From NCBI GenBank assembly GCA_051294375.1, contig CM119269.1:12742790-12806789 (forward strand): a stretch of 64,000 nt of DNA, in the 5' to 3' direction. This document shows positions 4,172 to 62,468 of this stretch, piece after piece (the stretch's first letter is position 1; every line of letters starts with the position of its first letter). Below the pieces are notes generated by a model. The model ran no database searches, had not been told where the DNA came from, and saw only the letters and a list, made by a program, of their open reading frames with translations. This DNA comes from Paraspadella gotoi. Lineage: Eukaryota; Animalia; Chaetognatha. The translations under genes and the position numbers were made by a program.

Positions 4172-4310
4172 ATGTCGGGCGACGTTCTGGCCGACGATTT
4201 CTTCAATTTGTCGGGTAAGTGAACGACATGATGACGACAACAACGACGCCGTTGATTTACCCTTACTTTCTTTAGGCGCGACTCACAATCACGTCCGCCG
4301 ATCAGCGCGC

Positions 4311-4341
<31 letters not shown>

Positions 4342-6095
4342 CGCCTCAAAGAATCACCTTGGAGAATTTCGATTCCGAAGACGCGGAGGGAAGCAGATAC
4401 GTGCTTACCAGCCCGAGGTGATTGCTTGCCTGGCTGTAGTGATTGATTGTTGTGCCGGGCATTGGAGAAGCTTATATTTCAATATCATTCAATCATTTTT
4501 TTAATTATTGAATTATTTTTTTATTTAATATTCAATGCCTTCATTCATTCATTCATTCGTTCATTCATTCATTCATTTAATTGTTAATTCATTTATTTAT
4601 TAATGTAATCTCTTATCATTTAAAATAATAATTCATTCATTCATTGCTTAATTTATTCATTCATTTTATTTATTAATTCATTAGTTTAAATTCCTTCATT
4701 TATTAATTAACTTATTTTTTAAATCATTTATTCGTTCATTCATTCTCTATTTCTTTCTTTTTTTCATTCATTCATTCATTCATTCATTCATTCATTCATT
4801 CATTCAGTCATTCATTCATACATTCATTCATTCATTCATTCATTCATTCATTCATTCATTCATTCATTCATTCATTCATTCAATTGTTCATCCATTTATT
4901 TATCAACCATTGCTTATTTTATTCATTCATTTTTTATTAATTCATCAGTTTAAATTCCTTCATTTATTCATTAACTTATTTTTTAAATCATTCATTCATT
5001 CATTCATTCATTCATTCATTCATTCATTCATTCATTCATTCCTTCTTCAGATCACTCGAGGCCTGCGCCGCAGTCGGAGTTCGACCAGTGGATTTACTTC
5101 CAAAGTCTTTGGAGGAATTCGAGTCGGAACTTTTGCCTCGAGGCGTCGAGCTCAGGACTATTAGGGATGAATTCGATCGGAGGGAGACGGAGAGACAAAG
5201 TGAGTGGGGAGAGGGAGGGAGAGAGAGAGAGAGAGGGAGACAGAGAGACCAACTTGGTGAATAGAGAGTGAGCTAAGATAGAGTTGGGTGACGATCTTTA
5301 ATTTTCAATTTCTCAGGGAACGTGATGGACGCGATGCGAGTTCGAGGAGATTTGATTCGAAATTCTCTAAACTCCTCTCTCGGCGGGAAAGGCAGATCCG
5401 GCGAATCGGGTAAGTCTCCACCTGAACTCAGCCAAAAATCTCTTAACTTACCCTCACTCTAAAAAGCAACGCCCTCTCTCCCCAGGGTTCTCATCGCGTC
5501 CTCCTCCGTCGCCGACGCATCGATCTCCGTTTCGTCCCGATAGAGGTCTCTCTTTCGACCCGCCACGCCCACCAAACTTTAACGAGCCACGCCCACTCGG
5601 AATTTCCGATTACTCTCGCTCTCCGATCTCGTCCAATCGAAGTCCGACTCCAACTCGATTCAACCGAAGTTCATCTCCGACGAATCGCGTCAGTTTCGGC
5701 GACGAAAACAACAACAACGACGACGACGACGACAGGTGAGTTAAATTTATTTTTTTTAATATTTCTACACTTTATTACTATTTTTCGTAGATTCACAGTA
5801 GATTGAAGACTGAAAAATACTTTTTTCCCCTTTTTCTCCCTTTTTATTTCGTTTTGTTATTTGGTTTTTATTTGTTTTATCTTGGCCGCCATTTTGCTTT
5901 GTTTTTTTTTTATGCCGCACGGATTCTATTTTTTTCTTTCTTTCCGCGTTTATCCATGGCATCTTTCCGTTTGGTATTTATTTTCTAAATCTTTTTCTTG
6001 TGTCGTGCTTTTGTTCCTCTTTTCCTTTTTCACGACTGAAAAAAATTATCGAACAAAATAAAATGACGACGACGACAAAAACCACAACGACAAAA

Positions 6096-6127
<32 letters not shown>

Positions 6128-9100
6128 TTCTCGCCCTTCCTGGCCGAAGCGCGGGCTCTAGTTCGAAAGAACAAAGAAATGACGAGAAAATTGGAAAAGA
6201 AAATCCGCGACACCAAAGGAGATAACAACAACAACAGCATCAGCGTCGACGAAGGGTTCGACTCCTCCGACACGGTTGACCTCGACTCCCCGGAATCGCC
6301 CGTCCGCGGTCGGGTCGGAAACAAATCGGCGCCGAAGAGACGGAATCCGCGAAAATCGACGCCGAAAAACCAGACGAATCCCGGCGTCGTTTCCAACCCT
6401 TATCTTCGTAAATTCTCCGTCGCCGCAGCAGCCCCGACGGCCCAGGAGCCGCCGCTGCAGGTCGGCGGAGTGGGCGTCGCCGGCGGACGAGCCTCTCCGG
6501 CGACTCCGGCGTCGCGAGCGAGGTCGGCTTCGCCCGACGCCGTGCGAGAACGAAGAAGCGGGCCAACGCCGTTTTTAGACAATGGGTGAGATATAATTGA
6601 CAGTTTTATTGATTTGATTGTATGACTGACAGCCTGACTGACACACTGTTGAATTGTTTGATTTATTTTCTTTCCCAACAGATCTCAAGATTCGACTTCC
6701 ACTCCGAGGCTTCCCAGGTTAGTTTGAACGGAAAAAACGACGAAATTTAATTTGAAAACCTTATAAACCTGTTCACAAACAACGATTTATAATAATAATG
6801 ATAATAAAATTACCTTTAACGTTCTAGAGAAAAAATCACAAAGTCCACGAATTTTAAAATCAAATTGAAAAAACCGTTAGTTATCTTTTCAATAAATAGT
6901 AAGAACAAATAAAAAAAAAGAAGCGTCAGGATTAAGAGAGTAAAGATTCAGGATTCATGAATCATGATTTTATTTTCGGCGTCTTGAAGTTGAACTATGC
7001 AAACTCCCCCGGGCCCCCAAAAAAAAAAAAATAACAAAAAAAGTAACTGAGTCGGTCTGACTTTCTTCCGCTGAGCAAAAACACCGAGTTATCATGAAAT
7101 ACTTATTCATGATAATAAAAAATAAAAAAGAAGAAATCAGCTTCGTCAGCATGACAACTTTTAAAACCTGTTCTGGTTCTTTTCGTCTTCTTTAAAAAAA
7201 AAGGACAAAACACAAAACAAAAAACACGAACGAATTCTTTTTCTTTCATTCTCATCGAATTCCTTCAATCAATTTCCTCTCGCTTCTCTGCAAACAATAA
7301 AAAAATGAATACCCATTGGTCATTGTTGTTTTTGTCTATCGGTTCCGCCATTGCAGCAATAGGCGGCACCAACATTAACATCTCCACCTGCCTTCCAATG
7401 CGTCAAACGCTGAAATGCGTCGACGCCACATCGTGGCGAATCAACGACGCAAAGATTAATTCCTCGTCGAAAGACTTTAACGTGACTGAAGACGGAGCGC
7501 TGGTCATCGCGGATCTACCGTACGCAGCTCGACAGGGCTCTTGCGCAGCCGTAGCCGTCGTTGGAGGTTCCTTGTGTAGCGAAACCGGGCTTTTTGAGTG
7601 GTCGTCGTGGAAAGTCTGCAACACACCATGTCCTCGGAGATATAAATGCGACGTTTCGAAAGCAAAGATCATTTCTACTCGCGCCATCAATGGAGAATTT
7701 ACCGGAACCATCTTTGTCCACTTTTCGTGTCCCCCGAATCGTCAATGTCGCGTCAGGGTTTACGATGCATACAATAATGGAATCGTAGACGAACGAATCT
7801 TCGCCTGCGAGCAACCTTGTCAAACATGTCGCGAATTGTGGGTCCTTCCGATTGAGCGTTCCTGGACAAGACGTGACTTGGCCTTTTACGTCGGCTTAGA
7901 CTTTGTTGACGAGGAGGTTGACGCGGAGATTTCCAGGATGTTCGGGTTCTCCGATTCGTTTCTTCCGCCTTCGCCTCCGGATTCGCCTCCGCCTCCGGAT
8001 TCGCCTCCGCCTCCGGATTCGCCTCCAAGTCAATCGCTTCCGCCGACACCCGTGATGCAACCGATCCCGCCTGCGACGACGCAATCGTATTCAATTGAAA
8101 TCGTCGTCGTTAGCATTATCGTAGTCCTCATCCTGCTAACCATTTGCGGGGCTTTTTGGAAGAAAAGGAGGCCATCCGATCCCGTGGTTAGAAGGACACC
8201 ACGAGTCGCGAACAAGCGACTTTATCTTTCTGATTCCGAGTACGCCTATCCCGAATTCTGGCCAAGCAACTGTAAACGAAAATGTAGTGATTCTGACGAA
8301 GTTTTTCCCCAATGCACACAGTTTTTGGCTACCACTGATCCGCCTAATTTGCCTGTTGAAGAAATGGATCTAGATTTGAGTGACGTTGAATCAGATCCAT
8401 TAACTGAAAACCCAGATGTACAAGCTATGGATAACTCTTCCTGCACAACTGAAATATCTCCTCATGACCTGGACGATGTTCCTTTGTCCAAACTATCAAA
8501 TCATCCATCAATGGATGTGGCTGATATTTCTCCACCCAAGATGCCTGATCCAATTGATACGAGCTCCCGGGTCAATGTTATTTCCATTCTGTTGTGTCCC
8601 GGGGCGACATGGATGAAAGCCGAGTTAACTTTAGAACAACAAACCAGCGTTGCTATGACAACGTTTAAAAAGCTCAAGTACGTTTTTAGCGGTACGGACA
8701 ACCTAGGTGTCATGGAAAAGCTCGTCGACGCTGGAGAAGCCATGAAGTTGGGATGCGGTCTCTATGTGGACACAGCGACCATCGCGTCGGCGATAGATGC
8801 ATTGCATGAGACGGAGAAGATGTTGACTCCAATTATCACACAATTTGGAGAGAGCGTCGTGGAAGAAGTCAAGCGGGGACGATATTCTAAGCGAATGATT
8901 TCAGATCTGTTGAAGGAACGACTTGGATTAATGGACAGTGACAGCAAAAGCAAAGAGTTATGTCATGCTATTATCCTCCATCTGAAACGAGAGGGTTTTT
9001 TCTATCCAGTGCCACAGTCTTGTATTTCCGCAAAAGTTGAACCAGCAGATAAATGGTATCAAATTCCTCACGTGTCAAAAGCTCCATTCATTCCCGACTT

Positions 9101-12100
9101 GTGGCAGTGCCAGACCGATCAATACCAGATTGGATACTTATATGAAACAAGCACACAAATTCCAGCTCATCTTTTGTCTTTGATTTCGATGTCCATAAAT
9201 AATTTCTGTCAATACCCAACCAGAATGGACTGGGAACACGGGCTCATGGCCAGGAGCGGAGCCTTGTCAGTGTATGTACAAAACTTTGATGAAAGAAATG
9301 ACGTTATTCACGGTGCCTATCACGTGAATGATTTTTCAAATGGCCTCCTCCTCGTCTGCCGAGGACCACAAGATCTCAAAGAAAGTGTTTCTTTGATGCT
9401 GCATAAGTTTGACGAACACATCTTGGGCTATCTGTCCTTGTGGAGTGAAACTAAAGTGAAGACACTTATTCCTTGTATTTCACAAACATCGACTGTGACT
9501 TCACACGGAACACGCGAAGATTCGGAGGAAAATTTGGTCTGTGACGCGTGTCAAAGGATTGAAAACATCTCTGAAATAGAAAAAGAGGAAAATGTTAAAA
9601 AAGGGGATCCCACGCCAATCGCTGAAAGTAAATCGTCGATAGTAGATCGAGGTTGCTTCGGCGAACGCACTGGCAGCAAGTCTTCAATCGATACTGGCTA
9701 TAAAAGTTTGGGGAGCGATCACGGCGCGCTGACATGGCCAAACTCAAGAACTTCCGAAGCCGCAACTGAATACTTGCAAAGTCAAGTTTTCAATAAATTT
9801 TGTCAAGCCACCGCCAGTATTGGAATTTGGAACGACAATGAAAACTGTTATTCTCATCATGGAACTGGATTTCTCTATGCGAAGAAAACCGATGATGAAA
9901 TTGAAATGATGACTTGCCTTCACGTGATATTTGGTATCGCGGAATTTCTGGGAATCGAGATTCCATCACATGTAACTTTAGATGAACTTAACGACTTGCT
10001 GGACAAATTATATGTTAAAATTACCTTCGACCATTTAGTTGAAGGTACTCCCGAGGAGCCCTGCAATGTGAATTTGTCATACAACGTGACTAGCGCCGTT
10101 GCTTATGGGTTGGTAGGAGAAACTGACCATGTTCTCTTGAAAGCCATTAAAGTTAGAGGCTCGGAGTTTATCCTGGAAGCCGAACCTCTGGCTGACTTGC
10201 TGATGGAGGATTCTTTCGATGAAAAATCTTCCTTCTTTCAAAGTCTTTTGATATTTGGTTTTGTAGACCGCAAAACAAAAGTTCACGACCATGCCACCTA
10301 TCGGGATTCCCTGGCAACTACCTGCGCCCTCAAACTCAAGCAGGATTTGGATTTGAAAGTCGTAGACATGAAGCCCGAAGTCAAGGAGCGTGTCTATCAA
10401 AATCTGGTCGAAACCAAGAGGTTTCATTATACTAACTGCGACTCTGGAAACGTCGCTGCCCACCAATTGGAGGATTGTGAACTTAAAAATGACGAGGACG
10501 ATGTGCGTTGCTATGAAACATTAAAGAATCATTTTAATCCCGAAGACAATTTGAGTCGCTCCGAGTGGGCAATGTTAACGGACCCCAGGAGGATGTTGCT
10601 CAAATCCAAATTTAGACATGGGGCTTCTGGAGCACCAATTGCTGTCAGCAAGTCCAAGAGAGGAAGATATCCCCGATATCCTCAAGTTCCGGACACAAGG
10701 ATTGATCTTGTGGTCGGCATGTACGTAAGGGGATTCCCAATTTCCGACAGGGTTGAGTTCCAGGTGGAACAGGGCGTTTGGATCACATACATCTTTGATG
10801 ATTGACTTTATTTTTCTGTTTTTAAGATTGACTCTATTTTTGTAAATAAAAATAGATCTATGTACTCAACTATTTTTGCTCGGTTTTTAAAAACATATGA
10901 TCTCTAGACTAAGGTAGTGGCATAACCTCAGAAGTTATTTTCAAATTGAAATCTATCTCGCTCTTTCTTCTCATGTATTATTTTTCAATATTTAATTTTG
11001 GTTCTTTCTATCTTTTGATCTTTTGTTTTATGTTTTGATCCATCGATCTCACTCTCAGCTGGCGACGCCGCCTCAACTCTCTCCCTCTGCTCAGCGAATC
11101 CCGCTTCTCCTCCCGCCAATTAAGTCATTGTCCCCGCAGCGATTTGAACCCCGTCGCCGCGTCAGACCGCCACGGCAGATCCGCGGAGCAGAGGCGCCAA
11201 TTGGATTCTATGCCTAGGTTAAACTGTCATCCTTTGGCCATATTTTTCAAAAGCTCCCCGTTGTCATTGCTGTTCAGAAATTATGGATTAGGTTTAGGGA
11301 TTGGTTTATCGATTTGGTTTAAGGTTTGTTTAAGATTAGAGGTTATGGTGAGGGATTAGAATTATGGATTAAATTTTGGGATTAGGTTAGGATAAAATAG
11401 AATTTAAAGATCTATGAAAAACGAAAGTTGTAATTGGCAATTAACTACGATTTTATTAATAATAAAAGTTGGACATGTTTCAACTCGTGCTTTTCGAGTC
11501 TTCATCAGCGTTGATGAACATGTCCGAATTTTATTGTTAATTGCCAATTAAAACTTTTGTTGACCTTAAATCAAAAATACAACAAAAAGAGAGAATGAAC
11601 ATAATTTAAAGATCCAAATTAAGTCCAGGGATTTATGGCAAAAAATAGAGCGCTTTTAGATAAATGTGACTAAGTTACTCCTTTTCCCCTGGTCTTCTCA
11701 CCTGACCACATTCTTAACCCCCCCCCACCAGATGGCGACGCAACGCCCTCCTTAATTCCCTTCCTTCCTCCCCATTTCACTCTCCTCCCGCCCCATGGGA
11801 AAACGACGACGAATATTTCGACGCTTCCTCCGCCTCCGCAGTGTCGACGCTGAGAAAGACGCATCCGCTGCCGCACGTCGCTTCCGCGGCGGAGCAGGAA
11901 TGGCGGCAGCGGAAGCGGGAAGGGTCTGCTAAGGCTGCTGCGGCGGAGGCGGCGGCGGCGCCCACGAGGTGGCGATATTAACCACGAATGTGAAGAAAAT
12001 AAAGAGAAAAAACTCACCGAATAATCACGAGCTTGAATCTTAACCTCGCTTTCTATATGTACATACATTGTACATACATGCAATATGTTATTCTAAAATA

Positions 12101-14505
12101 TACATAATCGCTGCCAGATAAAGTCGGGAAAAAGCTCATTTTCGTTTTGTCCCGGAAAAGAGACTGGCTTTGAGGTACAAACTTGGATTGGCTCATGGTT
12201 CTAATATTAATACCTTTCCTTTAAATGCACATTAATTTGTATAAAATTAAAATATTTTTAAATGGAAAAACAAAATTATTTTATTGTTTTAGAGCGGTAG
12301 TTGATAAAAAGTGTTTTAGTTCGCTTATTGTTTGTCTTGTCAAAGGCTATTTATAATACAGAAATGTAATATATAGTTTTATGCACAAACCAATTTTAAC
12401 AATAAATCGAACCTCGTTTCGTATCTTGTCTCTTCATTTCTCTCTCGCTCGTCTTCATCTCTATATTTCTCACGGGCCGATGCAGCCGTCCGTCCACCCC
12501 TCGATCCGCCGCCCATTCCCCGCCTCCCGTCTCGCCGCCTCCAGCATGGCGCCCAACCGGACGAGCCACTGCGGGGAAAAGGATGAGGTTCGTCATTGAA
12601 AACAAACATCACTTTTTCTTCTTTTTTTTTGTGTCTTCCGCTGTTAGGGATTTGAATGGGAGAGCCGCTCCCTCCGTGAACGGGTCATTTTTTATTTCTT
12701 TAAAAATTTTAATTTCTTTAAAATATCTTTTATTAACGGACTAATATTTAATTCTCATTTAACATACATACTAAGTGCGAATCGCTAGTTTGTTTTCAAT
12801 GTTTACTTTTTTAAAGTGAAAACATAGTCCGAGGCTAACTATAACCAATTGGCCGTAGCATTTCGATCAGACTTTCAGGCAAAGATCGATTAATTTTCGT
12901 TGTCGTCGTCATCTTCGTCATCTCAGCGTCAAGAGTTGGACGAAATCAAAAGTCGTTGACGTGAAAATCGATGCGACGACGACGACGACGACGAAAACGA
13001 CGCATTCTGTCGATCCCTCGTCGGGAGTTTCCTTTTTCATCACAAAGTCGAGGGTTCGACTCTGTTCATTCCCCTTTAGTCGATATATACTGCAGCCGTT
13101 CTGGTCGTTGTTGTTCTTCTATTTTAAGCATCGATTCATTTCTGAGAAATTCAAACTGCGATGGATTTTTGTCTAAATTTTTTTTTATTTTTCCTAAGAT
13201 TTTTCAAGCAGAGAAGAAAATCTCTCCAAAAAAACTTGATTTTTTTTCTTACATCGATTTTTATCTTTCGCTTTTCTTAGAAATTTCCCCTAGAAATCTT
13301 TTTTTTTTCCTCCTTTTTTCCCTTCACCCCCTGAACTTTCTGTCTCTGCTACCAACTTTTAATAAGTTAATTATATTCAATCATTCAATAAATTTAGAAG
13401 ATTTAAAATCAGCTTTTTTTTAAACATCGATCGAAACGATTATTACATTTAATATTACATTTAATTTTACACCCACTAAAAACCCTTAACGTCTCTTCTT
13501 GTTCTTTCATTCCTTACTCCCCCTCTCCTTCCCCTCTTCCTGCTCCTCCTCCTCCTCTTCCTCCTCCTCCTCCTCCTCATCTTCTCTTTGATTTCGTCTT
13601 TTTTATTCTTTTCTCTCTTTATTATCTTTTCTCACCTTCCTTACTTTTCCTAATCTCTTCTTCCAAGTTACATCTACGATGCCATCGCCGTCATCTTCGC
13701 CGGCGTCCTCCGATAATTCGCTTTCCGATTCAATCACCGACGCCGATTCCATTAACGGCGCTCATTTAAAAAGCGGCGCCATCGAAGGCCTTACCGACGC
13801 CGATTCCGGTTCCACCGACGCCGCGGAAATCCACGAGATTCCCGCTCCGTTAGTTTGGTCTCTCGAAGTCCCTAAAACCGACGCCGAATTATCTAACGGC
13901 GCCGCCAACACAGACAATTATAGTAAGACGACGCCGTCCCGTCTCTCTGCGTCATTTTTTGTTAAAAATGACGCCGCGTTATTGAGCGGCGCTAAACGCG
14001 TTCGACCGCCGACGGCGCCGCGCCCTTCTGTGTCGTACTTTTTAGCCTTTGACCGGAACGACCCCACCGATAGAAGCAGAGCCGCGTACAGAAAGAACGC
14101 CGCGTACAGAAAAAGAGCCGTGGACAAAAAGAGCGCCTCGGAAAGAAAGAGCACCGGCGATAAAAACAACGCCCCTGATAGAAAGAGCGCCGATCGATCC
14201 ACGCCGCTTATTAATCGATCGTCCCTTCGTTCGACGGCGTCGAATTCGAACCGGCGTCAAGTAGCGCCGCTTGTTCGATTTCATTTAGACTTTTCAGGCG
14301 CCGAGATTCGTGAACCGGAATCCAGACGTTCTCGTCAAATCGACGCCGGTTTGACTCGACGTTGCCCGCCGAAATCCGGCGTCGGTATAGGCCGGAAGTC
14401 GTCGTCGTCGTCTAAAGACGCGCCGGTCGTTTTCGATCTCAAACTTCCGCTGATTATTAATCGTCTTCCCCTTTCTCCTCTTCCTCCTCTCCCTCGTTTT
14501 CAACA

Positions 14506-14539
<34 letters not shown>

Positions 14540-17500
14540 ACTCCTCAAAATCGTTGCCGTCTGAAATCTTTGTTCAATCGAAACGAAAACGTCAACAACG
14601 ACAACAACAACAACGACTTCAGTCGTATCGCCAAAAAAGGAGCAGTGATGGCAGGACGAATCTTGGGCGGTGATCATTCGCCTCCCATCAGGTGAGGTTG
14701 GCGTTGGAAATTTAACGTTGCCCGGGTCTTGTCGTTTCTGGTCGCCATGTCGTTGATGGAAAATGTAGAAGTCGGTAGAAGGCTTGGCTATTGTTAGACT
14801 CGCCATCGCACGTTGGCGTGGCTTAATGGTTAATCCTCAATAATAATTAATGGATGTTGTACCAATTTGTACGGACGTACTCAAGTTTACAGATCCATAC
14901 TGCATAATTTACCTTTAATTAACTTTTGAAAAGACAAGCCAACATATCAATAAAATATCTTCTAACCCTCCCAGATTTAGTTACTAACCGTCTAAAACCA
15001 CTGCAATGATTTCTCAATTTAAGTTTCCATGTTTTTCTCTTTTTTTTCACTGCTGGACACGAAACGATATACCAATAAAATAAACAAAATTTATGTCAAA
15101 TATTAAATTAAAACATTAACTTTAACTGCCAATCGGCGTTAAATTTAAAAAAAAAAAAAATTTTGAACCAACTATTGTTTCAAACTTTAATTATTAAACC
15201 GAAAATAACATAATTAATTATAAATTACATAATGATATTTCACAATAAATGACGCCTGCCGAAGATTCGGCGTGGGCGACGGCGCCATCACGCCGCGCGA
15301 TTTGCCGGCGACGGTCATCGCGGCGCCGGAAGACGACGACGACGACGACGACGACGCCGGTGGCGTCACAAGCGGACGAAATCTTAATCTGGCAGAAATC
15401 GTTTCCATGGCGACGGAGAAAGCGAAGAGGGAAAACTGTTTCGGGGGTCGAAGGAGCAAAGGGAGAAAGAGTCGAGGGAATGAGAAAGGTTACGTGAGCG
15501 AAGGAGTAGGAGCTGGTTATAGGAGCGGAACGAAAAACGAGGTCAGCAGGAAAAGGTACAACACTTACGCGGGATACTGGTGAAAAAAAAATTAAGGATG
15601 AAGCAAAATAATTGAATGGGACTTTAAAATTTGATATAGAAAAACCAACCAAATTACCGGTATCACACTTAATAATTACAATACCTTCCTTTGTTTCTTT
15701 TATAATTTTCTGTTTTAATCAATAAATATAATTTTAAACTTCACACAATTCTTCTTTTTTTTTAACTTTAAAAGTTGGAAAGAGTCTGATTCGTTGGTGG
15801 GAAAAAGTAAAATTGAGATTCCAGTCAAGATGATTCCAGATGCAAGGTGACCGAACTGATTATCGACCGAACAGCATAGACTGGAAAGTTGAAAGTTTAG
15901 TTCGGAATTATCGTTGTCGTTATTAATGAAATTAATTATGTTAATAAACAAAGGAGACGCAATTAATGCTGATCTCGAACTATCGCGATTTCTTCCTCCG
16001 CGGCTTCAGCCATGCCATGGCTCTTGATGTCGGAGACTACGTCCTCTTTTTTGTGTACAATTTTCTGCTTCAATGTCCCGCTTAAAATTGTCAATTGTTC
16101 GCTGTAAGATTTTGGAAACCCAAAATATTTTCATCAATAGCAGAAGATCATGGATTTAGGTAAACTTTTAATACTTGGTCCTTGCATGCAGTTTTTGAGA
16201 TCATTAACAGAAAAAAAGTAATCCTCACCGACTAATTTTCATCTGGATGCTCTAATTTAGTTACTTCCCTGAAATAAATATAACTATTAACTATTAACTA
16301 ACCAACTGCATTTTTCTTGGATCAGCTAATCTTTCTCTCTAATTTTCTTACAAGAAATTTTCCCATATGTAAAATATTTTTTTTTAGTAAGTATCACGTA
16401 CCTTAAATAATAAACACCGTAGCAATACCTTATAAAAACTTAACTTTACCTAAACTTTATTAACAACAAAACGCATGATATCTTAACTAAATCATCTGAC
16501 AAACATAAGATTTTCTAGAACCGATAAGTGTTCCGGCTAACCCAATTCTACACCAATTCTTCAGTAACTCGGAAGGACGATTTGCGCCAGAAGTGCGGCC
16601 TCCATCTCGCCGATTCTCCGCCGCAACACCTCGACGAGATTCCTCCTCATCTGAGCCGAAAAACGTTGTTGCTGCGAAAACAGAAAAAAATGTTGCAGCA
16701 ACCGCGGAGATTTCTAACGTTGCCGAAAATTCCAAGGTGAAACAGAATTTAAATTTGATAATAATAAAGATATAATCTAATATTTATTTCGTGTCACTTC
16801 GAGTTTAAGCCGAGTTTAATTCCGTTCCGCAGTTGACGGTAAATTCGACGCCGATTCTAACGCCGCTCATGCAAAAGACGGCGCCTTTGACGATGTCGGC
16901 GCCGCAACCATTTCTTCCAAAGACGCCGACAACGACGACGACTATAACGATGACAACGACGACGCCAACAACGCAGTTGACAACGACGTCGATGACAACA
17001 ACAACCACGACGATGACAACAACTACTCTTAAGTCGCCTACTCACGTAATCTTTGATCTAAAAAGTCAAGAAGAAAAACAAAAACAACAGCAATTTCCGC
17101 AGCAAGAATTATCCCCGCAGCAATCCTTGCTGCAAGATTCCGAAGTTGTGCTGCAGCTGAGCAAAGAAATGATGGCTTCGCCGTCTGTAATGCAAACGAA
17201 AGAGATTGGCGATAATGAATTAAATGGAACGACGAGTTGGACCGCAGAGGCGAGCGGTGAAGTTGAAGTAGAGGGCGCGGAGGGCAGAGTGGAAGCTGTG
17301 GAAGTTGACGAGGGAAAAATTGAGGAAGAAAATGAAATGTCGATAGAGGCGCTGCCGTTGACGACGACGACGACGACTATAGAGACGACGAAAATGGCGA
17401 GGGAAAAGAAGGAGGAGGGGGAGGAGGAAGAAGAAGAGGAGGAAGAGGAAATTGTCAAATTGGAGGATTTGGTGGCAGAGGACGAGTTTTTGCGACAAGT

Positions 17501-20500
17501 AGAGACAAGAAGGAGAAGCGTCGAGGGAGTTTATTATAGGTTAATATTGTTTAATAATGTTTATTATTCCATTTTGTTATCTAGGTTTAATATAGGAGTG
17601 AAAAAGTAAATTACTAACTTACTGCGTACTGACTTACAGACTTACTTAATACGTTTATTCTTTTTTTTTTCTCGAATTTGTCTTTTTCTTTACTCTGTTG
17701 GCCTTTTTAGGTTTTATAGTTTTTTTCATAGCCAATTGGTTATAAATATACCACTATTATAGTAACTATAAACATTATTTTTCGTCCCCTTCCACAGAGG
17801 AGGAGCCGAAATCAACTCTTCTCAGAACGAATCCGTCGTCAGCAAAAATTCGCAGAGAAAGATTCGTAGAATCGTTCGACCGACCGGGAACGCCGTTGTT
17901 GTTAGATCCGGGCCCACCGGGAACGCCCTTGAAGTCAAAGGTCGGCTGAACGGGAACGCCGTTGAAGTCAAAGGTCGACCGAACGGGAATTCTGTTCGGG
18001 TTAAAGGAAGGCAGATTGACAATTGCGTCAAATGCTCGACGCTGAGGTTAAAAGATCAGGTTAGTCGAAAAATTACTTGCAAAGTTGAGGTTGGTTCAAA
18101 TGAAGTTTTAAGGATTAACAGAAATGGGGCGCTTTCTGTAAATAGTGCAAAAACGAAACCTGCGAAGTAGAATAGAAAGATTCTCTCGTTTGCGCAGGAC
18201 GAAAAAATCCTGAAACTCATGATGAAGAGAAGAAGAGAAGAGGAAATGGAATTCGTCAAAAATGCGATAATCGAACAGGTTGATGGGATTTATTAAGAAC
18301 TATGTCATTAATCAACCTAATAAATAAATGAAAAAATAAATAAAAGAATATATAAAGAAATAAATTAATAAATACGTCGCTAAATAAATTATTTGATAAA
18401 TCAATCAGTGCCATCACTCAAACAATTATTCAGTCTTTTATTTGAACAATCAATCAATCAATCATCAATCAAACATCAATCAATCAATCAATCAATCAAA
18501 ATAAATCTTCTAAGGAGTGGGCTATGGCGCGTCGTTCTCAGATCCTCGATTCAATGGATTCTTGGGAATCGAATCGACGATCGAAGAAAATCGACGATCG
18601 AGTTGAGAGAACTCGAGTCTCCGCAGCAGCAGACGCCTCCGCAGCAGCAGACGCCTCCATATCAGCAGACGCCTACGCAGCAGGAGACGCCTACGCAGCA
18701 GGAGAGGCCTCCGCAGCTGCAGACGCCTCCGTTGCAGACGCGCTCGCATCCGCCGCTGATTTCGACGACGATGAAAACTCGTCCTCAGTTCAAAGAAGCT
18801 ACCGTTGCTTTTGCCGCTCGAGTGGCGCGAAAAATGGGCGCGTCGATGACGTTGCGAAATCGAATGATTACGTCAAATTCGAGGCTCAAAAGAAAATGAT
18901 CGAAAATGACTATAAACCCAGCGATTATAAAGTTGACCACGAAGTTGTCTTGAGCGACAACAAAGCGCCAAGCAAACGTCGCGACATGGAAAGCATTGAG
19001 AAAAGCGACGCCTTGCGGGCGATGGAGCGACACATGGCGTCCATTACGACGAAGACGAACTGGAGAGACTCTGCTCGGGTTCAAACGGATCCCGATCAGA
19101 ATGGAAAGAGTGATCAGCGATCTGACGATTGCGGTGATGAGATGAGAGGTGATCACCTTGACTGTCGGGGTGATCGAGACACTGACTTTGACGATTTAAT
19201 CACCGAAGAGAATAAACTTCTTAGCGATGGTCGTCGCCGGGTGCGTCTCAGCGACGATCGCCGCCAGGATGAACTTATGGATGGACTCCGCGGATTCGAT
19301 CGTCTTTTCGGCGAAGATCTTCACCGGGGAGACTTTCACCGCTGCGCCTTGGAGACGAAGAGGAGGATGGACGACGCGGAGAGGAAGAAGACGAGGACGA
19401 GGAATACCGAGGCGGAGGTGGGTAGGAGGAGGAAGAGGAGAAGGGAAAAGATGAGGGGGAGAGGAAGAGGAAGAAGACGAGGACGAGGAACACCGAGGCG
19501 TAGGAGAGTAGGGGGAGGAAGAGGATGAGTAAAAAGATGAGGGGGAAGAGGAGGGAGGAGATGAATTGAGAAGATATGATTCTGAATAGATAAAGTGGTG
19601 CTGCTAATATGATAGTAATTAATTATGAAATTAATTTGTGAATTTAATAAAACTGCGTTTAACCCACCCCATCAACCAGCGCTTGCGCCTTGACAACCGA
19701 TTTCGCGATCTCGAGCGACTCCAGCGTCTCAAGGATTTGGCGGAGATGGATGAGATGGAGGCGACGACTCGGAGGAGGATGTTGGAGACGAAGCATCGAC
19801 GGGCAGAGGAGAATCGGGCCAGGGTGGTAGTCGAACAGGCGGGCAGGATGAGGCAGAGGAGGTGAGATTAGGGGGAGTGGAAATATAGCGAGATGGCGGC
19901 GGGGTGGGTGCAAGGGTGGCAAGAGGTAGAGAATGTCATTTTAAGATGAGAGAAAAGTTGCATAAATATTACAAGAAAAAACGGTAGCTCAGTTGTAATT
20001 AACGTAGGTAAAATTAAGTCGGTCATAAGTCTTTAAAAAGCTAGTCACTTGCCAGGTTCAAATTTAACCGCTGCCACCACATAGGGCCTTTATTTCTTTT
20101 TACAAAACAAAGCAGCAAAAATCTTCTTCTCTTTTTCCTCTTTTTTCACCTCAGATCCGACGATCAACTCCGCCACCACCTCGCCCGCCACCGCCTCGCC
20201 ACGCAGACGGCCGACCGGCGTCGTTGGGCGGCGTCATTGCGCGGACGTCTCGACGCCGCCGAGGAGAGGGCGGCGGCGAGGGCGGCGGCTGCTGCGGCGG
20301 GACGGCGTGGGGGAGCGGTTGAGGGGCGTAGGAAGAGGGCGGAGGTGGCGGCGGAGAACGTGAAGAAGTAAAAAAATATTATTAACAGAGTAATATAATT
20401 ATTATTATTATTATTTCTATTACATCAATGGCAATCAATGAAAGAGTTTTAAATTTTTATAATTTGACAATTTATTCTATTTAATAATTAAAAACTCCGC

Positions 20501-21119
20501 TTTGCCCAGATTGAGAGAGAGCGAGGAGCTGTGGCGAAGTTCGATCGAAGCGTCACTTCGAAAGAAAGAAGAAAGAAGCGATCGAATCTTGGAGGAGAAA
20601 CAGCGGGCGATTGAAGAAGTGAGTTCACGAAGGATGAGGTTTATTTATTAATATAAATGATAGTGATTGCCTATCATCTTATTATTGACTGAGCCAGTTT
20701 AGGAATGTACAATGTCAATGTACAATTCGAAACGTAAATTTATAATTTTGTTAGCGTAACTGTTTATATAACTATCTATGATAAAGCAATTAAACTTTAT
20801 TTGTTTATATAACTATATATTTATTTAGCAAGCTTCCGAATAACATCGATATTAGGCGATCGGCAAAAACTAAAGTAATTCCTTCAATCAGCGTCGATCT
20901 TTACAAACCGCCAACCAATCGCTGCTCTTCCCGCCCTTTTCGTTCTAGTCCCGCGCTTTGGCTCAACTCGCATCTCAAATGCGCGGGAAAATCAAACGCG
21001 ATTTTCTCGGCGGCGACGACTTCGCCAAGAAATCGCGCGACGCTGAACTCTCGCGCCGCCTGGAGGGTCTTTCGGTGAAGGTGCCGCGCGGAGGGACGGC
21101 GCGTTCTGGATGTGGATGA
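4172..21119 (+). CDS. CCDC177: CCDC177/CCDC185-family coiled-coil protein, multi-exon, with a very long low-complexity middle
   Basis: Phase-consistent GT-AG exons 4172-4214, 4276-4417, 5051-5199, 5317-5409 give ITLENFDSEDAEGSRYVLTSPR|SLEACAAVGVRPVDLLPK, the CCDC177 N-terminal signature. 3' exons 19680-19861, 20155-20367, 20510-20618, 20949-21119 give LRKKEERSDRILEEKQRAIEE|SRALAQLASQMRGKIK..DFAKKSRDAEL, resembling the CCDC177 C-terminus. Probable middle exons: 5486-5735, ~6030-6585, 6682-6717, 11059-11217, 11732-11968, 12486-12587, ~13668-14691, ~15250-15493, ~16520-16736, ~16810-17539, ~17798-18278, ~18514-19420. Not all middle junctions were resolved. Confidence 0.8.
7305..10805 (+). CDS. 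Intronless type-I membrane protein: signal peptide, Ig-like/Cys-rich ectodomain, Pro-rich stalk, TM, COR-like region, cytoplasmic FAM111-like trypsin serine protease (nested gene)
   Basis: 1166-aa uninterrupted ORF. Signal peptide MNTHWSLLFLSIGSAIA; Ig-like pattern LKC..SWRIN..FNVTEDGALVIADL; TM IEIVVVSIIVVLILLTICGAFW+KKRR (~8094-8171); protease motifs GTGF, TCLHV (H873), TDHVLLK (D941), RHGASGAP (S1108), LVVGMYVRGF, VEQG; AATAAA at ~10845. Confidence 0.85.
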   Translation: MNTHWSLLFLSIGSAIAAIGGTNINISTCLPMRQTLKCVDATSWRINDAKINSSSKDFNVTEDGALVIADLPYAARQGSCAAVAVVGGSLCSETGLFEWSSWKVCNTPCPRRYKCDVSKAKIISTRAINGEFTGTIFVHFSCPPNRQCRVRVYDAYNNGIVDERIFACEQPCQTCRELWVLPIERSWTRRDLAFYVGLDFVDEEVDAEISRMFGFSDSFLPPSPPDSPPPPDSPPPPDSPPSQSLPPTPVMQPIPPATTQSYSIEIVVVSIIVVLILLTICGAFWKKRRPSDPVVRRTPRVANKRLYLSDSEYAYPEFWPSNCKRKCSDSDEVFPQCTQFLATTDPPNLPVEEMDLDLSDVESDPLTENPDVQAMDNSSCTTEISPHDLDDVPLSKLSNHPSMDVADISPPKMPDPIDTSSRVNVISILLCPGATWMKAELTLEQQTSVAMTTFKKLKYVFSGTDNLGVMEKLVDAGEAMKLGCGLYVDTATIASAIDALHETEKMLTPIITQFGESVVEEVKRGRYSKRMISDLLKERLGLMDSDSKSKELCHAIILHLKREGFFYPVPQSCISAKVEPADKWYQIPHVSKAPFIPDLWQCQTDQYQIGYLYETSTQIPAHLLSLISMSINNFCQYPTRMDWEHGLMARSGALSVYVQNFDERNDVIHGAYHVNDFSNGLLLVCRGPQDLKESVSLMLHKFDEHILGYLSLWSETKVKTLIPCISQTSTVTSHGTREDSEENLVCDACQRIENISEIEKEENVKKGDPTPIAESKSSIVDRGCFGERTGSKSSIDTGYKSLGSDHGALTWPNSRTSEAATEYLQSQVFNKFCQATASIGIWNDNENCYSHHGTGFLYAKKTDDEIEMMTCLHVIFGIAEFLGIEIPSHVTLDELNDLLDKLYVKITFDHLVEGTPEEPCNVNLSYNVTSAVAYGLVGETDHVLLKAIKVRGSEFILEAEPLADLLMEDSFDEKSSFFQSLLIFGFVDRKTKVHDHATYRDSLATTCALKLKQDLDLKVVDMKPEVKERVYQNLVETKRFHYTNCDSGNVAAHQLEDCELKNDEDDVRCYETLKNHFNPEDNLSRSEWAMLTDPRRMLLKSKFRHGASGAPIAVSKSKRGRYPRYPQVPDTRIDLVVGMYVRGFPISDRVEFQVEQGVWITYIFDD
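7966..8027 (+). repeat. 18-bp coding tandem repeat (PPDSPP)x3 forming the extracellular stalk
   Basis: TCGCCTCCGGATTCGCCTCCGCCTCCGGAT... repeated three times. Confidence 0.9.
11424..11560. mobile_element. Penelope-like pseudo-LTR remnant in inverted arrangement
   Basis: Arms TAATTGGCAATTAAC..AATAAAAGTTGGACATGTT and AACATGTCCGAATTTTATTGTTAATTGCCAATTA flank a hammerhead core. Confidence 0.55.
11471..11510 (-). ncRNA. Minimal type-I hammerhead ribozyme motif (Penelope-type)
   Basis: Minus strand cg-CTGATGA-a-GACTCG-aaaagca-CGAGTT-GAAAC-AT-GTC-c: intact core, stem II and GUC cleavage triplet; stem I poorly paired. Confidence 0.7.
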
Positions 21120-21559
21120 CTTCAAGAGGGAAGAGGGCGTCAACGAATCTGTGAACTTTACTCTCTTGGATTATTTTTTTTTAGTCATTCAATGAGTCAT
21201 AGAATAATCTGTGAAATTAGTAAAACCAATAGAAAATAATAATAAATAAGCTATCTTGCCCCTGACTTTAGACAGGAATTGTCTGGTTAAGGTCTCCATC
21301 TATCTTGCAAGATAAAATCATAGCAGGACGAGCAAGCTCTCAGACAAGACTCTCTCATATGATATGAAACGATAATAATTTTACAATAACTGAGGACAAA
21401 GCTTCTTTTGTTATTATTGTTTTTTCAATCCTCTTCTCGAGCTATCGCAAACTCCTGTCCTGTGTCTTGAACTAAATTTGCCGTTTTTAGTTGTAATAAT
21501 TAGCTATTCGTTTTGAGATTAATATATTTTAGTTATACAATACATTTTTTTTGTCACTT

Positions 21560-21867
21560 AACGTCTGACGCCCACGTTGAAGATCTTGGCATCCTCGTCC
21601 TTCCGGTCTCGGCTTCACCTTGAAGGCGTGGCTTCGGTCCTCGAAGGTTCGACCGAATTGCGCCGTGTTGATGGCCAGTTGCAAACGCAGAGCCGCCACC
21701 TTCTTGGAGGCGCGGACGACGGGGTTCTGCCATTGGGTGTAGCCGCGACGGGCCGCTTCTTCCGCGGAGCCGACACAGAGTCTGCCCAAACCCGTCGCCG
21801 TCGGGGTTGTTCTCGGTCGCGGAGAGGGAGGAGGGGTCTTTGGAATCGCTGTTGGAGATGTGGTGCC
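21560..21867 (-). pseudogene. Isolated, frameshifted exon of a protein DD3-3-like gene
   Basis: After a pyrimidine tract and AAG acceptor: RHHISNSD.. / ..ARRGYTQWQNP..LRLQLAINTAQFGRTFEDRSHAFKVKPRP / DAKIFNVGVR, matching the recalled DD3-3 motif LAINTAQFGRTFQDRSH..I.N.NVRG. At least two frame changes; no partner exons seen. Confidence 0.65.
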
Positions 21868-32669: not shown

Positions 32670-33020
32670 AAAAATTATGCAAGTTACCGAATTAGGCAAG
32701 TTGACCAAATTATGACAGTTAACTAAATTATGCCAGTTGACCATATTATGCAAATTAACTAAATTATGAATGTTGACCAAATTATGCCAGGTGACCAAAT
32801 TATGCAAGTTGACCAAATAATGCAACTAGACAAAATTATGCAAGTTGACTTAAATTATGCAAAATAACTAAATTTATGAAAGTTGACCAAATTTTTCAAG
32901 TTAACCAAATTATTCCAGTTGAATATATATTCTATTTGACCAAATTATGCCAGCCGATAAAATATGTCAGTTGACCAAATTATGCCAGTTGACCAAATTA
33001 TGCAAGTTGATCAAATTATC
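32670..33020. repeat. ~18-bp minisatellite (GTTGACCAAATTATGCAA-like)
   Basis: Many degenerate tandem copies inside the Tc1-type element. Confidence 0.85.
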
Positions 33021-36763: not shown

Positions 36764-37407
36764 TCAATCCTTCTTATTGAGTCCAGTTGGAAAGTGAACA
36801 ACAGAGACGCCGCTTTTGGCGACGACGACGACGACGACGGCGCCATCGCTCAACCTCGTCGTCAAAGTCGTCGACGCCGTTTTCGTCGTCGTCTTCGTCG
36901 ACGGCAACGCCACGCCCCCAAGAAACCGTCGACACTCGAGATCGAAGACGCCGAGAACGCCGGCGTCGCTCGCGACGGCGATGGCGTCTTCGTCGCCGAT
37001 GAGCGCCGCCGACGAAATACGAAAGCCGGCGTCGAACGGAACTCGATGCAAAAGAGCGCCGGAATCTCGAGCGAAGGTGGAGACGGAATTGGCAACGCCG
37101 TCGACGACGAGGAGACGCGACGCCGAGAGAAATACGCCCACTGGCGCCGCTTTTGACTCTGATCGTAGTTTGTGCAGACAAAGACCGGACGATGGGCGAG
37201 ATTCTGATCGCAATTTGTGCAGACTGAGACCTGAGGAAAGACTCCAGGTCATCACCGTCCCTTCTGCGTCGCTGGAGACCAATTGGGCCTCGTCGGCGCC
37301 AGGGTCAAAGGTCAGAGAGACGATGGCGGATTCGTGACCCGAGAGATGATGGAGAATGACGCCATCTTGGATGCGAGAGACCTTATGAGAGACGGGAAGT
37401 GGTTTGT

Positions 37408-37464
<57 letters not shown>

Positions 37465-37875
37465 GGACTTAATCTCTCGTTGTAATTCGTTGCTCTTGAG
37501 TTCCTTTTGTGAAGTGTTTAAAAATATAAACAATCAATACTTGTTTACAAACATTACCGTTCATTATTACTTCATTACTATGTATAATCATGATTTTCTT
37601 TCATACAGATTGTAACAATATTATTAGGTCTTATATGGTCTAATATCTTTTATATGTCATTAATAATCTTTTTGTGGCTATTTATATCGTTATTGATTAG
37701 GCTGAGCTTACCTGAGAGATCATTGCTATTCTGATTGATTCCCGATGCTTGCTTTTGCTTACCTCCAGTTCTAGATCATACTTGATCCCAGAAACTTGCG
37801 TGTCAATCTGATTGCTGCCTGCAATATTGATACTCTCAGAAGGGTGAGCAAGAGACGGAAAAACCTCGCTCATCA

Positions 37876-37956
<81 letters not shown>

Positions 37957-40900
37957 ACACGCACCTTGATCATTCCCTCGTTGCAGCCAGTAACGACTTT
38001 TCCGCCTCCAACGACAAGATCACCCAAAGGAGTTTTGTGTGCTCTGACGGATTGGTTGAGGAAGAGTACCTGTTAAGGGTTAGTTTAATTAGTTAATTAG
38101 TTTAATTAAGTATTAAACAATGATTGAATAGAAAGAAAATTCATTAACTTTCAATGGGACTCTGCAACGCCTTACCTCCGAACACCCTTCCATCGTCGCG
38201 CCATCTTGAGGGTAAGTCTCGTGCAGAAAAAAGTCGAGCATGCCGTCCAGGTGCGCCGCCACGATGAAAACGGGACTATTCGCGGTCATCGACGATTCGG
38301 CGACGGAGGCTGGCGCCGCTTCGAGGTGCGTAACGCCGGATTGAAGGCCGGCGTCGCCGGATTGACGACAGACGACGCCGGGTTTAGTTGCCGGTTGAAA
38401 GACGTGAGTCTCGACGCTTCCGTCGCCACAGCCAAAGTAGAGGACATCGTTGACTAGACAGAGACACCAAACGGCGGCGACGCGCGACTTGGCGCCTTCG
38501 TTCGATCCAGAAGAGACGGAATCCTCGGAATCTTCCGGCGCCGCGAGTTCGTCGATGCTCCAACCGGATTCTGCGCCGGATTTTCCTACGTAGGAATCTT
38601 CGATGCTGCCGGAAGAGGGTCGCCGCGGCTCGCAGGACTTCGCCGAGTCCGGCGCGGCCCATCTGGCGATTCGCGCGACGGCGGCGCCGGTTTCCACGTC
38701 GAAGACGACCACCTTGGCGCCGCTGGTGTCCGTCGCCGCGAAGAGACGAGAAGAGACGCGCGACGCCTCCACTTCCGCGGCGTCGTTTCCCGTCAACAAA
38801 GGAAGAACGGCGACGGAATCGGCGGCGACAATTTTGGCTCCTGCGGAGGGAGCGGCGGCGTCGGCTGCTGCGGCGGATGAGCAGGAGGCTGCGCGCCACT
38901 CGGCGTAGTTTTTGGAACAGACGCAAAAGTAGAGAGCGAAGCAAGTGTAAGCGAGAACAAAGACGACGAGACAGACGAAACCAAATAGGAAGAGGAGGAG
39001 CATCGATTCTTCGTGACGAAGAGAAAAGAGTGAATCGTCGGATGCGGAAAGTCGAGCGAATCGGACGAAGCGGGCCAAACGAGACGGAGATCCGAAGAGA
39101 AGACCGGACGCGATGTCTTCCTCTTCGAAAGCGTTTGCTTCCTCGGAGAGGATCGTCGAGGAGTTCCCGCGTCCGAAACTGGCGGCGACGAAAACGTTGG
39201 GAAGGACGGAGACGAATCGATTCTCGAAGGGCAGATCGAGTTGAGCGACGAGGGTTCGAAGATGAGACGACGCGTGACGTTGCGTCACTCGATCCAATCG
39301 CTCCACCACGGTGGCGTTGCCATCGACGGCGCTTCGATCCGCGCCGAAGAGGCCCAACTCCCGCCAGGCGTCTCTGAGAGCGCCGGCGTCGTCCAAATCG
39401 CCGCAATAGAGCGCCGCGACGTAAGCGATCCACGCCGCGGCGCCGAAGATGACGCCGCGAAGGACGAATCTCTTCTCCGTCACGAAGTCGACGACTCGAA
39501 GTCTTTTTGAAGAGGAAGGGGAGGAGGAAGAGAAGGAAGAGGAGAAAGAGGAGAGACGAGGAAAAGAACTCTTCCTCTTTCTCCTCTGAGTCAAAGATGG
39601 CGACGTTCTAGGCCACTCGGCGACGGCGCCGCGAGGATCAGCAGCCAGAGATATTTCGGCGCCGGTATCCAAAACGGCGCCGTCGTTTCGCGGCGTCGAG
39701 TAGAGGACGTCCTCGAGATCGACGCGACAAACGTCGATGGAGACGACGCTGACGAAAAACGTCATCTGGAGGAAGAAGGAGGAAGCGACGGCGACGACGC
39801 CCACGAGGCAAAAGTCACCGACGGCCGGAACCGGCGTCGCTAATCCGGCGAGAAGGATCGCCGAGACGATGGCGCCGTGTTTGGCGATAGAGACGCCGTC
39901 TTTGGCGAGACCTCGCGCCAGGCGGCGTTGGCGATCGACGCCGATCGGTTGAGCGACGACGGATTTGGTGAGAACGAGGACATTTTCAAGGCCGATGATG
40001 AGGACGAGGTAAGGAAAGACGACGCCGCCCTGGCGGAAGGAATATTCATTTTAAGGTAAGTTAATATTCGATTGTGAGTTAAACTTAAAAAAGAGCTGTT
40101 GATACGTGCATTCGAAATTTTGAATTTTGTTACCAAGTTTCAATTTACAGGCATTCATCCTCAAAATAAAATAAAAATTAATTAATTTCACGAATAAAAA
40201 TAGGGTTTGACCCAGAGTAAATAAATTATAAATTTATAAATTTATAAATTTTGTCGACTCATCAGTCCATCACAGAAGATACAGAGATGGAACCGGATCA
40301 GAAGCTCGGGAAAAATCACTGAAATGGAATCGAGCTCTCTGATACAGAGACGGAACCGGATCGGAGGCTCTGGAAGAAATTACCAGAATGAATCGAGCTC
40401 TCTGATTGGCCGAGACTCAGATGGAAGCGGCCAATGAGCGAAGAGGCTGTAAAATTTACCAATGTCTCTGATCCACTTGCTCTGTATAAATAGATGTAGA
40501 TTTTGTATCCTGGCATTCTGTCCAAAATTGACACCGTCTTCATATCTGTTTTTATATCAATAAATTCCACTTTGGTTTCACGTTCAAACCCTGTCTATTT
40601 ACTTAAATGTGGTGACAGGAGTGGATTCGACACCCCACGCTCTCAAGAAAAGAAGAATCAAGCCTTACCAACAACGACCACGCCACCCCTCAAGAAGATG
40701 GATTCCCCAGCCCCCAACTATTCCCCCAGCCAAAGCCGGCTGAAGAAAGGGGCCGCGAAGCCAGCCACAGGCACCGCAACAAAATGAAGACGGTAGCAGC
40801 CACCGCGAGGATCTCGACTACCATACGTTCGAACTCACGGGAGCTCTCTTAGAGCAATGCCAATTGGAGACGAATCAAGCGGAAGTGACACGCCAAATCC

Positions 40901-44746: not shown

Positions 44747-45559
44747 AGTAGAGATTCGGATTTAAGTTTGATGGAATGTTTGTATAAAGTTTGCGTCGTG
44801 GTAGTTTATTTTTTGTTTTGAAATATTTGTTTTCTGGACTTGATTTCGTGTCGTTTGTATGATTTCTACTTTGTATAACTTGAAAGACTGGCGGGAGAAG
44901 TAGATACCAAAAAATGAGGAGTTGAATGATGAGGTTAATTTGATGTTTTTTAAAGTTAAGTTTAATGTTCCCCCCTAAACCAGCACGGGTGGAGTTTACG
45001 TAATCACATGGTCCGAAAAGTCGCCCTGGTGGAACGGAGCAGGAACTAACTAAACAGATGTAAACATTATAAAGGGCATGGGAACGATATCAAAGCCAGG
45101 TCGAAAATCCTTTGCGCACGAAGCGAGCTCTTTACTCTTCTCTCTCAATCGATTTATGTTTTTTTTTTTAACTTGTAAAAAAAACAAATGTCCTATAACT
45201 ACTCCCAGTTAATTCCGATGCTATTTTATCTTTAGCAGTCGACGCCGACTCGTGGCGCCTCCGACGGACGGAATGTGCAACTGGATCGACGTTTACAAAA
45301 GAGCAGCGTCAATGAGACCGATAAGAATTGAAAAACTTTCCAGTTGCGTGTCGTCGTCGTTGTCGTCTTCCTCTTTTGATTGGGTAAGGTCATGGCCTAT
45401 TTCAAGGTGTTGCTTTTCTTAAATTAAAACAAACTAGGAAAAATTCCCGGGAGAAACAACTTTGATTAATTGAAGTCGACATTTTTATGGGTAAAAATGA
45501 AAAAAGCGGCGAATAAATTATTACCAAGTTTCTTCCATCTGGTCACCGACAAATGAAAT

Positions 45560-49842: not shown

Positions 49843-54972
<5,130 letters not shown>

Positions 54973-60447: not shown

Positions 60448-60500
<53 letters not shown>

Positions 60501-60506
60501 CTCTCT

Positions 60507-60597
<91 letters not shown>

Positions 60598-62381: not shown

Positions 62382-62419
<38 letters not shown>

Positions 62420-62423
62420 CTCT

Positions 62424-62468
<45 letters not shown>

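Follow-up and report, generated by a model that had tools for sequence, protein, structure and literature searches.

The window analysed here is a stretch of 64,000 nt from the chaetognath Paraspadella gotoi (GCA_051294375.1, contig CM119269.1, positions 12,742,790–12,806,789 of the forward strand). At 7305–10805 (+) it contains an open reading frame (ORF) whose product, P0001, is predicted to be a membrane receptor carrying a COR-type module and a likely trypsin-like protease domain on its cytoplasmic side. The ORF was found to be intact and free of stops over 1166 aa, as described in a first-pass annotation of this DNA, and the codons of the proposed catalytic residues H873, D941 and S1108 lie at 9921, 10125 and 10626 as given there. 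From composition, the chance of 1166 open codons is 10^-28. There is no upstream in-frame ATG in the open frame that precedes the ORF (7155–7304), and a candidate polyadenylation signal (AATAAA, 10845–10850, +) is located 40 nt 3′ of the stop. The ORF is real and has no introns.

The N-terminal part of P0001 begins with a predicted signal peptide (aa 1–18; 7305–7358, +) ending in A-I-A-A, with a hydrophobicity that is moderate on the Kyte-Doolittle (KD) scale (1.57) and a cleavage site placed by eye. Ectodomain module 1 (aa 23–108; 7371–7628, +) carries sequons at N25, N52 and N59 and, by eye, an Ig-like pattern of C38, W44, L66-x-I68 and G78-x-C80 in which the usual F-strand Tyr is absent. 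No Ig profile matched the ectodomain in Pfam-type scans. The leader and Ig-like pattern of the first-pass annotation are thus kept in part, the former as a leader of only moderate hydrophobicity and the latter as a visual resemblance. Module 2 (aa 109–216; 7629–7952, +) contains Cys and is probably beta-rich, as suggested by strands in a low-confidence model and by a weak match to Pfam CATSPERE_NTD1 (E=8e-4, below cut-off). Residues 1–215 contain 12 Cys and 3 sequons in all. They are followed by a Pro/Ser/Thr stalk (7953–8099, +) with a PPDSPP repeat, encoded by an 18-nt unit present 3.4 times at 7966–8026, so that the Cys-rich ectodomain and stalk noted previously were both recovered.

Hydropathy analysis detected one strong segment at residues 266–284 (KD 3.16), the next peaks being 1.67 and 1.57, with the latter corresponding to residues 6–24. 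This segment is predicted to be a single transmembrane (TM) helix and is followed by KKRR (286–289; helix and KKRR together 8100–8171, +). Nine K/R residues were counted in 285–305 against none in 246–265, on which basis the C-terminal 880 residues are predicted to be cytoplasmic, regardless of leader cleavage. P0001 is accordingly predicted to be a type-I single-pass membrane protein with a positive-inside C-terminus and a signal peptide that is only moderate, which agrees with the topology proposed at first.

On the cytoplasmic side, an acidic linker (aa 290–429; 8172–8591, +), within which a CpG change-point falls at about 8220, stands in the place of a Roc GTPase. It precedes a helical region that is probably COR-A (aa 430–597; 8592–9095, +), the second half of which could be aligned, and a COR-B-like subdomain, the dimerisation half in Roco proteins (aa 598–728; 9096–9488, +), which was identified with hhalign. 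A test set was drawn from 68 matching bacterial loci, 60 of which had more than 200 aligned residues and were kept; Roc was present in 53 of the 60. Comparison with 8 COR sequences gave P=0.008 over aa 523–648, and comparison with the 60 bacterial COR domains gave P=3.6e-4 to 4.6e-4 over 105–107 columns in register, spanning aa 600–728 (W600 to LIPC). The COR score of 34.4 was reached by none of 172 shuffles (best 24.3), while scores of 15–19 were obtained with the reversed sequence and with four further segments of P0001. When the subdomains were split, COR-B alone was reached by none of 48 shuffles. The alignment supports the presence of COR-B and makes that of COR-A probable, and the COR-like cytoplasmic module suggested by the first-pass annotation is upheld. 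ESM Atlas features of aa 415–765 also pointed to COR-A/COR-B clusters (0.93, 164 shared features), among which Mollusca were commonest and COR-A was found on 16–39% of members; this placement is taken as a lead alone.

A Roc profile made from 53 bacterial domains matched P0001 only at shuffle level (27 of 43), and the Roc motifs, namely the P-loop GxxxxGKS/T, [WYF]DxxG and [NT][KH]xD, do not occur in it. As no Roc was detected, P0001 is not considered a member of the Roco family. COR-B was found in none of the 401 genomes of the phylum of genome G001, and no trypsin Ser motif was found downstream in any of the 68 bacterial COR loci, which are short. It was also observed that in an Acaryochloris plasmid (L013:225–3016) the Roco gene is in three pieces, with separate LRR, Roc-COR and DUF4062 genes.

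The C-terminal part (aa 813–1166; 9741–10802, +) was assigned from features and motifs to a trypsin-like (PA-clan) domain containing H873, D941 and S1108, with a candidate helix at its N-terminus (817–838) suggested by the sequence and by a low-confidence model. ESM Atlas features of aa 810–1166 led to trypsin-family clusters (0.97, 151 shared features), with all ten of the best named matches belonging to the trypsin family or clan; an Atlas score of at least 0.95 arises once in 100 shuffles, the rate for parts of proteins not having been measured. A Trypsin_2 profile built from 40 sequences (42 loci fetched, 2 left out) had its best local match at GTGF..TCLHV, which was equalled in 1 of 133 shuffles. 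Alignment with MAFFT matched six of seven near-invariant columns, as did 3 of 150 shuffles. The ordered motif TxxHV ... D-x-hhh ... GxSGxP ... hhG was found in none of 20000 shuffles, the pattern having been written after the sequence was seen. The catalytic Asp, D941, was assigned by eye. The domain is likely to be trypsin-like, with His, Asp and Ser motifs in the expected order, and the original assignment is sustained by the Atlas score, the Trypsin_2 profile and the MAFFT columns.

The first-pass annotation compared this domain with FAM111A/B. In FAM111A the triad is His385/Asp439/Ser541, the residues F538, H556 and E573 line the S1 site, and the serine protease domain (SPD) is available as 8S9K in PDB (PMC10920703). 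By eye, H1105, Y1140, F1144 and E1155 of P0001 fall at F538, H556, F560 and E573 of FAM111A, and the specificity may differ since H1105 occupies the S1-lining F538 position. FAM111 proteins carry N-terminal ubiquitin-like (UBL) domains in vertebrates and a PIP box in mammals (PMC9798293), neither of which was recognised in P0001 by Pfam scans. In the accessible part of the same review, invertebrate FAM111-like proteins, including those of coral and lancelet, are without UBLs, and the word 'membrane' is absent. The lack of UBL and PIP box does not discriminate, because the coral and lancelet proteins are also without both. No FAM111 sequence was present among the phmmer matches to PDB at E<=10 or in the protein searches, all of which have low sensitivity. 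The term 'FAM111-like' is used here for a resemblance and not for membership.

The ORF lies within an intron of another gene on the same strand, a fact that the earlier account of the gene omitted. Exons 1–8 of this CCDC177-like host gene (4172–20618, +) are open in frame (4172–11217), with the later exons partly traced, as far as exon 9; exons 1–7 form an uninterrupted reading frame of 400 codons that runs on into exon 8. The host gene contains an SPRSLEAC motif, which we take to be that of CCDC177, and one later exon, out of seven exon pieces scanned, gave a weak DUF4659 match (E=0.0076, below cut-off). Exon tracing placed the ORF in a GT-AG intron of 4341 nt (6718–11058, +), the seven other traced introns being 61–633 nt. 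A host transcript spliced into the ORF was considered and rejected: the best acceptor (7356) does not keep the host frame, the in-frame AGs at 7579 and 7639 have weak pyrimidine tracts, and exon 7 joins to exon 8 with the frame preserved. Given the frame at 7356, the ORF is expected to use its own ATG. No clear terminal repeats or target-site duplication were detected at the ORF or host intron, and there is no poly-A tract at the ORF locus. Within the host gene, a 290-nt AG-free zone (5809–6096) 5′ of the acceptor of exon 6 suggests a distant branch point, and several internal exons are long and of low complexity (e.g., 13592–14695, 16809–17609 and 18446–19528).

A second omitted fact is that the gene is of two-part composition. 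The observed/expected (o/e) ratio of CpG is 1.48 for codons 1–305 and 0.89 for codons 306–1166, against 1.54–1.66 for three sets of host exons. A change-point at nt 8220 (about codon 305) exceeded 200 of 200 codon permutations, and NCG codons made up 35 of 97 before codon 305 and 23 of 190 after it (p=4e-6). The ectodomain taken separately (14 of 56) differed from the cytoplasmic part with p=0.03 and from the host with p=0.10, whereas the 3′ three quarters of the ORF differed from host exons with p=5e-8. CpG is over-represented in the whole window (o/e 1.29; exons 1.5–1.7), suggesting that CpG methylation is scarce or absent in this genome and making the CpG-poor 3′ part of the ORF conspicuous. 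From these values we infer that a host-like receptor front was fused to a cytoplasmic module whose history differs, the fusion being placed at about codon 305 because of the sharp change there. A methylation gradient along the gene is an alternative cause of this seam.

The same composition could point to a viral or mobile origin, with the ORF being an endogenised gene of a large DNA virus or polinton-type element, for example one for a decoy receptor whose protease cuts host signalling proteins. The ORF is intronless within an intron-rich genome, and its 3′ three quarters depart from host exons to the extent given above. The 5′ part, however, is host-like, viral_contigs, phages and PHROGs yielded no relative, the 4.3-kb intron contains no other viral gene or terminal repeat, and the COR-like Atlas clusters closest to P0001 come mostly from eukaryotes, with Mollusca commonest. 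Such an origin is therefore regarded as improbable. The seam could also have been produced by an error of assembly that joined two halves, or else the protease could face outward, for which the 5 sequons and 12 Cys located C-terminal of the TM helix would speak. The frame stays open over the seam, where neither N nor repeats occur, the charge bias is 9 against 0, and COR domains are cytosolic modules; of the explanations considered, this one is given the smallest chance.

Searches for relatives of P0001 returned nothing above cut-off in profile scans with Pfam, NCBIfam, PHROGs and PADLOC or in sequence searches of PDB. Word-index searches, for which the queries were taken C-terminal of the TM helix alone (aa 420–1166, 810–1166 and 1075–1166) and in which longer and shorter length classes were partly covered, gave no match among 7988, 1425 and 12 candidates, respectively. 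An exact look-up showed P0001 to be absent from the protein collection. Searches of phages and plasmids by tblastn and scans of viral, metagenome and prokaryote genomes gave chance-level matches alone (L001–L004 and H1–H2). This lack of matches is a matter of divergence or of an unsampled lineage and not of absence. The triad and the architecture are accordingly known from this one locus.

These results bear on whether the ORF could be a functionless chimeric retrocopy, young or decaying, in which two pieces were fused in frame, inserted in the intron and left silent or neutral. It is intronless, nested and known from a single copy, with a sharp seam at codon 305 and no orthologue in the homologue searches; the missing poly-A tract and clear target-site duplication were listed on the same side. 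Set against this, 1166 open codons, residues at all three catalytic positions, a leader peptide and an AATAAA have been kept, and the parts stand in a sensible order. A functionless retrocopy is considered unlikely.

The reading to which we give about an even chance is that P0001 is a type-I receptor in which a COR module and a likely trypsin-fold protease are switched on by ligand-driven clustering of the ectodomains. Beyond this anatomy the mechanism is one that we infer. A receptor-type N-terminus (codons 1–305) would have been joined to a COR-protease module of Roco origin, taking over the position of LRR-Roc, with the product sitting as an intronless copy inside the host intron. A ligand would pair two chains through their ectodomains, and COR-B may pair as in the Roco protein of C. 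tepidum, here without GTP control, so that ligand clustering would replace the GTP-controlled monomer-dimer cycle of Roco proteins. Pairing could then order the protease active site, by analogy to the FAM111A protease, which dimerises through an N-terminal helix that orders the oxyanion hole and which needs dimerisation for activity in vitro (PMC10920703). The protease might cleave cytoplasmic substrates, perhaps including its own acidic linker, whereby the COR-protease part would be released. Immune or cell-death signalling would be the likeliest pathway, as COR and trypsin modules keep such company elsewhere.

As the pairing of COR and peptidase is already known in Roco proteins, a Roco-derived module in which the LRR-Roc input has been swapped for a surface ectodomain is a better frame than FAM111, and P0001 most likely works like a Roco sensor-effector that has been adapted to the cell surface. 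More tentatively, and with somewhat less than an even chance, it may be the first animal single-pass 'receptor protease', in which an extracellular Ig-like sensor, standing in for the LRR sensor and GTP switch of a Roco-type COR-protease module, would fire a FAM111-like serine protease through ligand dimerisation with no adaptor. It would then be to proteases what receptor tyrosine kinases are to kinases, and possibly one of a lineage-wide family with interchangeable ectodomains. The interpretation in the first-pass annotation is thus supported in part.

A number of results weigh against ligand-switched proteolysis by a COR-protease receptor. The evidence is the DNA of one locus, and no relative was found in any search, all of which need close relatives. 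COR-A alone was not detected (matched by 31 of 47 shuffles), HMMER support for COR was weak (7 and 6 of 500 shuffles as good), and Pfam models of COR (including PF25497) and trypsin matched nothing in P0001. The Atlas matches share 151 (protease) and 164 (COR) features, fewer than the 170 typical of matches within a family. In the protease domain, the Ser-motif match at HGASGAP, which is the best for the C-terminal part, was not significant (P=0.11), and MAFFT placed the column of the invariant Asp at L944, so missing D941 by three residues; simultaneous alignment of His and Ser also occurs in 20 of 150 shuffles. The triad spacing is 68/167 in P0001 and 54/102 in FAM111A, the autocleavage of which is independent of dimerisation (PMC10920703). 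AlphaFold models made without an alignment had pLDDT of 34.3 and 32.9, and Foldseek and VIA were uninformative on them.

The last-named points touch on the possibility that the trypsin-like domain is an inactive scaffold and that the receptor signals by protein contacts. There are large insertions between the motifs, D941 was not aligned automatically, and the models of the fold are of low confidence; still, none of the His, Asp and Ser motifs is missing and their order is the expected one, and a dead protease is held to be highly improbable. COR dimers, too, can be constitutive and would then provide no switch. P0001 would in that case be a membrane-tethered cytoplasmic protease free of gating by a surface ligand, its ectodomain serving to anchor, to sort or to sense the ER lumen. 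In favour of this, the RocCOR of CtRoco dimerises via C-COR and receives nucleotide control from Roc (PMC6337361), which is missing in P0001, and the ectodomain has no known ligand. On the other hand, the ectodomain is a two-module, Cys-rich and glycosylatable one on a Pro-rich stalk, as is typical of surface receptors, and an unregulated cytoplasmic protease would be costly. A constitutive dimer is judged unlikely, and ligand-driven clustering of a Roco-type sensor-effector is preferred.

Elsewhere in the window, a divergent SCAP gene was identified at 36764–44761 (−), with SCAP_N, sterol-sensing and WD40 exons (Pfam Sterol-sensing E=2e-24, SCAP_N E=3e-10). Its exons, together with the spliceosomal introns, mark the window as animal DNA. 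On the opposite strand within its intron (40744–42888, +) are two or three ORFs (265 and 314 aa) that are gag-like by eye with no Pfam match, possibly representing the remnant of a retroelement. Exons at 50416–53714 (+) contain the cysteine-switch motif PRCGRPD, HELGHTLGLHHS and hemopexin-like pieces and presumably belong to a gene of matrix-metalloproteinase type. By eye, an exon at 45907–46167 (+) resembles what we take to be a CD225/dispanin two-TM protein, and one at 21529–21800 (−), convergent with the host gene, resembles the end of a C2 domain of synaptotagmin type. A local duplication of about 800 nt was found at 60199–60921 and 62004–62789, the copies being offset by 1868 nt and both including a CT microsatellite and telomere-like repeats of TAACCC type. 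Minisatellites are present at 32672–33019 (18 nt, 19.4 copies) and 48334–48497 (23 nt, 7.1 copies).

Animal receptors reach proteases via adaptors, as with death receptors and inflammasomes. If the preferred reading is true, an ectodomain, TM helix, COR and protease in one chain would add a direct class of output to animal receptors. P0001 would be a natural experiment on COR without Roc, bearing on the regulation of LRRK2 and other Roco proteins, and on whether dimerisation-dependent activation of a FAM111-type protease can serve as a ligand switch; should the mechanism hold, its compact design could be copied in synthetic receptors with proteolytic output. Cytoplasmic proteolysis in response to an outside signal is known from BlaR1/MecR1 of bacteria and DEK1 of plants, which are multi-pass, use metallo- or cysteine proteases and share no domain with P0001. 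Ig-TM-TIR receptors of IL-1R type have an Ig-TM-effector layout that P0001, if its Ig-like motif holds, would share. The domain IPR009003, met below in brown algae, is presumably one of the S1/PA clan.

FAM111A/B have an intracellular trypsin-fold domain like the one predicted for P0001, with the candidate helix of P0001 just N-terminal of the first barrel (PMC10920703; PMC9798293); P0001 differs in its membrane anchor, its longer triad spacing, the absence of a sequence match and the lack of a recognised UBL or PIP box. COR also enters innate-immune architectures in invertebrates, where TIR proteins of Aplysia (TLR-like and MyD88-like ROCO, PMC9334734) and sea anemones (actiniarian NG1/NG3, PMC5094078) have acquired Roc-COR by shuffling, and one Aplysia TIR protein is listed with COR alone (PMC9334734). 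The effector in these and in IL-1R-like receptors is a TIR or kinase, as opposed to the likely serine protease of P0001. Trypsin-like proteases adjoin bacterial gasdermins (PMC9612521), and the C-terminal effectors listed for bacterial LRR-AP-GTPase-COR conflict proteins include trypsin (PMC8195603). Supplement 4 of the latter study lists Death/TRADD-N-trypsin fusions of Branchiostoma, including XP_002598013.1 (FN3+FN3+TRADD-N+coiled coil+Death+Trypsin), which, as is predicted for P0001, ends in a trypsin at the effector position and for which neither TM nor COR is listed.

The closest likeness is to Roco-peptidase proteins. Three group 3 ROCOs of brown algae and their SAR relatives carry a C-terminal IPR009003 domain, COR being detected in 18 of the 111 genes of that study (PMC11378527), and the 17 'trypsin' occurrences of supplement 6 of PMC8195603 include 1 protein that combines COR with trypsin in a single chain. 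The first-pass annotation knew of no described protein with the architecture of P0001. In the supplementary files searched 'TM+COR' had no occurrence, and searches of open-access full texts, judged from listings and the beginnings of abstracts, gave no ectodomain-TM-COR-protease protein; this leaves the claim standing for the ectodomain-TM swap but not for COR with a C-terminal peptidase, which is already in print for cytosolic Roco proteins of brown algae and one bacterium. Both these proteins and P0001 have a COR-type module N-terminal of a likely PA-clan peptidase in one chain, and the Roco-peptidase proteins have been proposed as immune sensor-effectors. P0001 differs from them in that it is intronless, occurs in an animal and, in place of a Roc GTPase and an LRR or VWA sensor, has a signal peptide, an ectodomain and a TM helix, and it is this proposed replacement of LRR-Roc that appears to be the new part.

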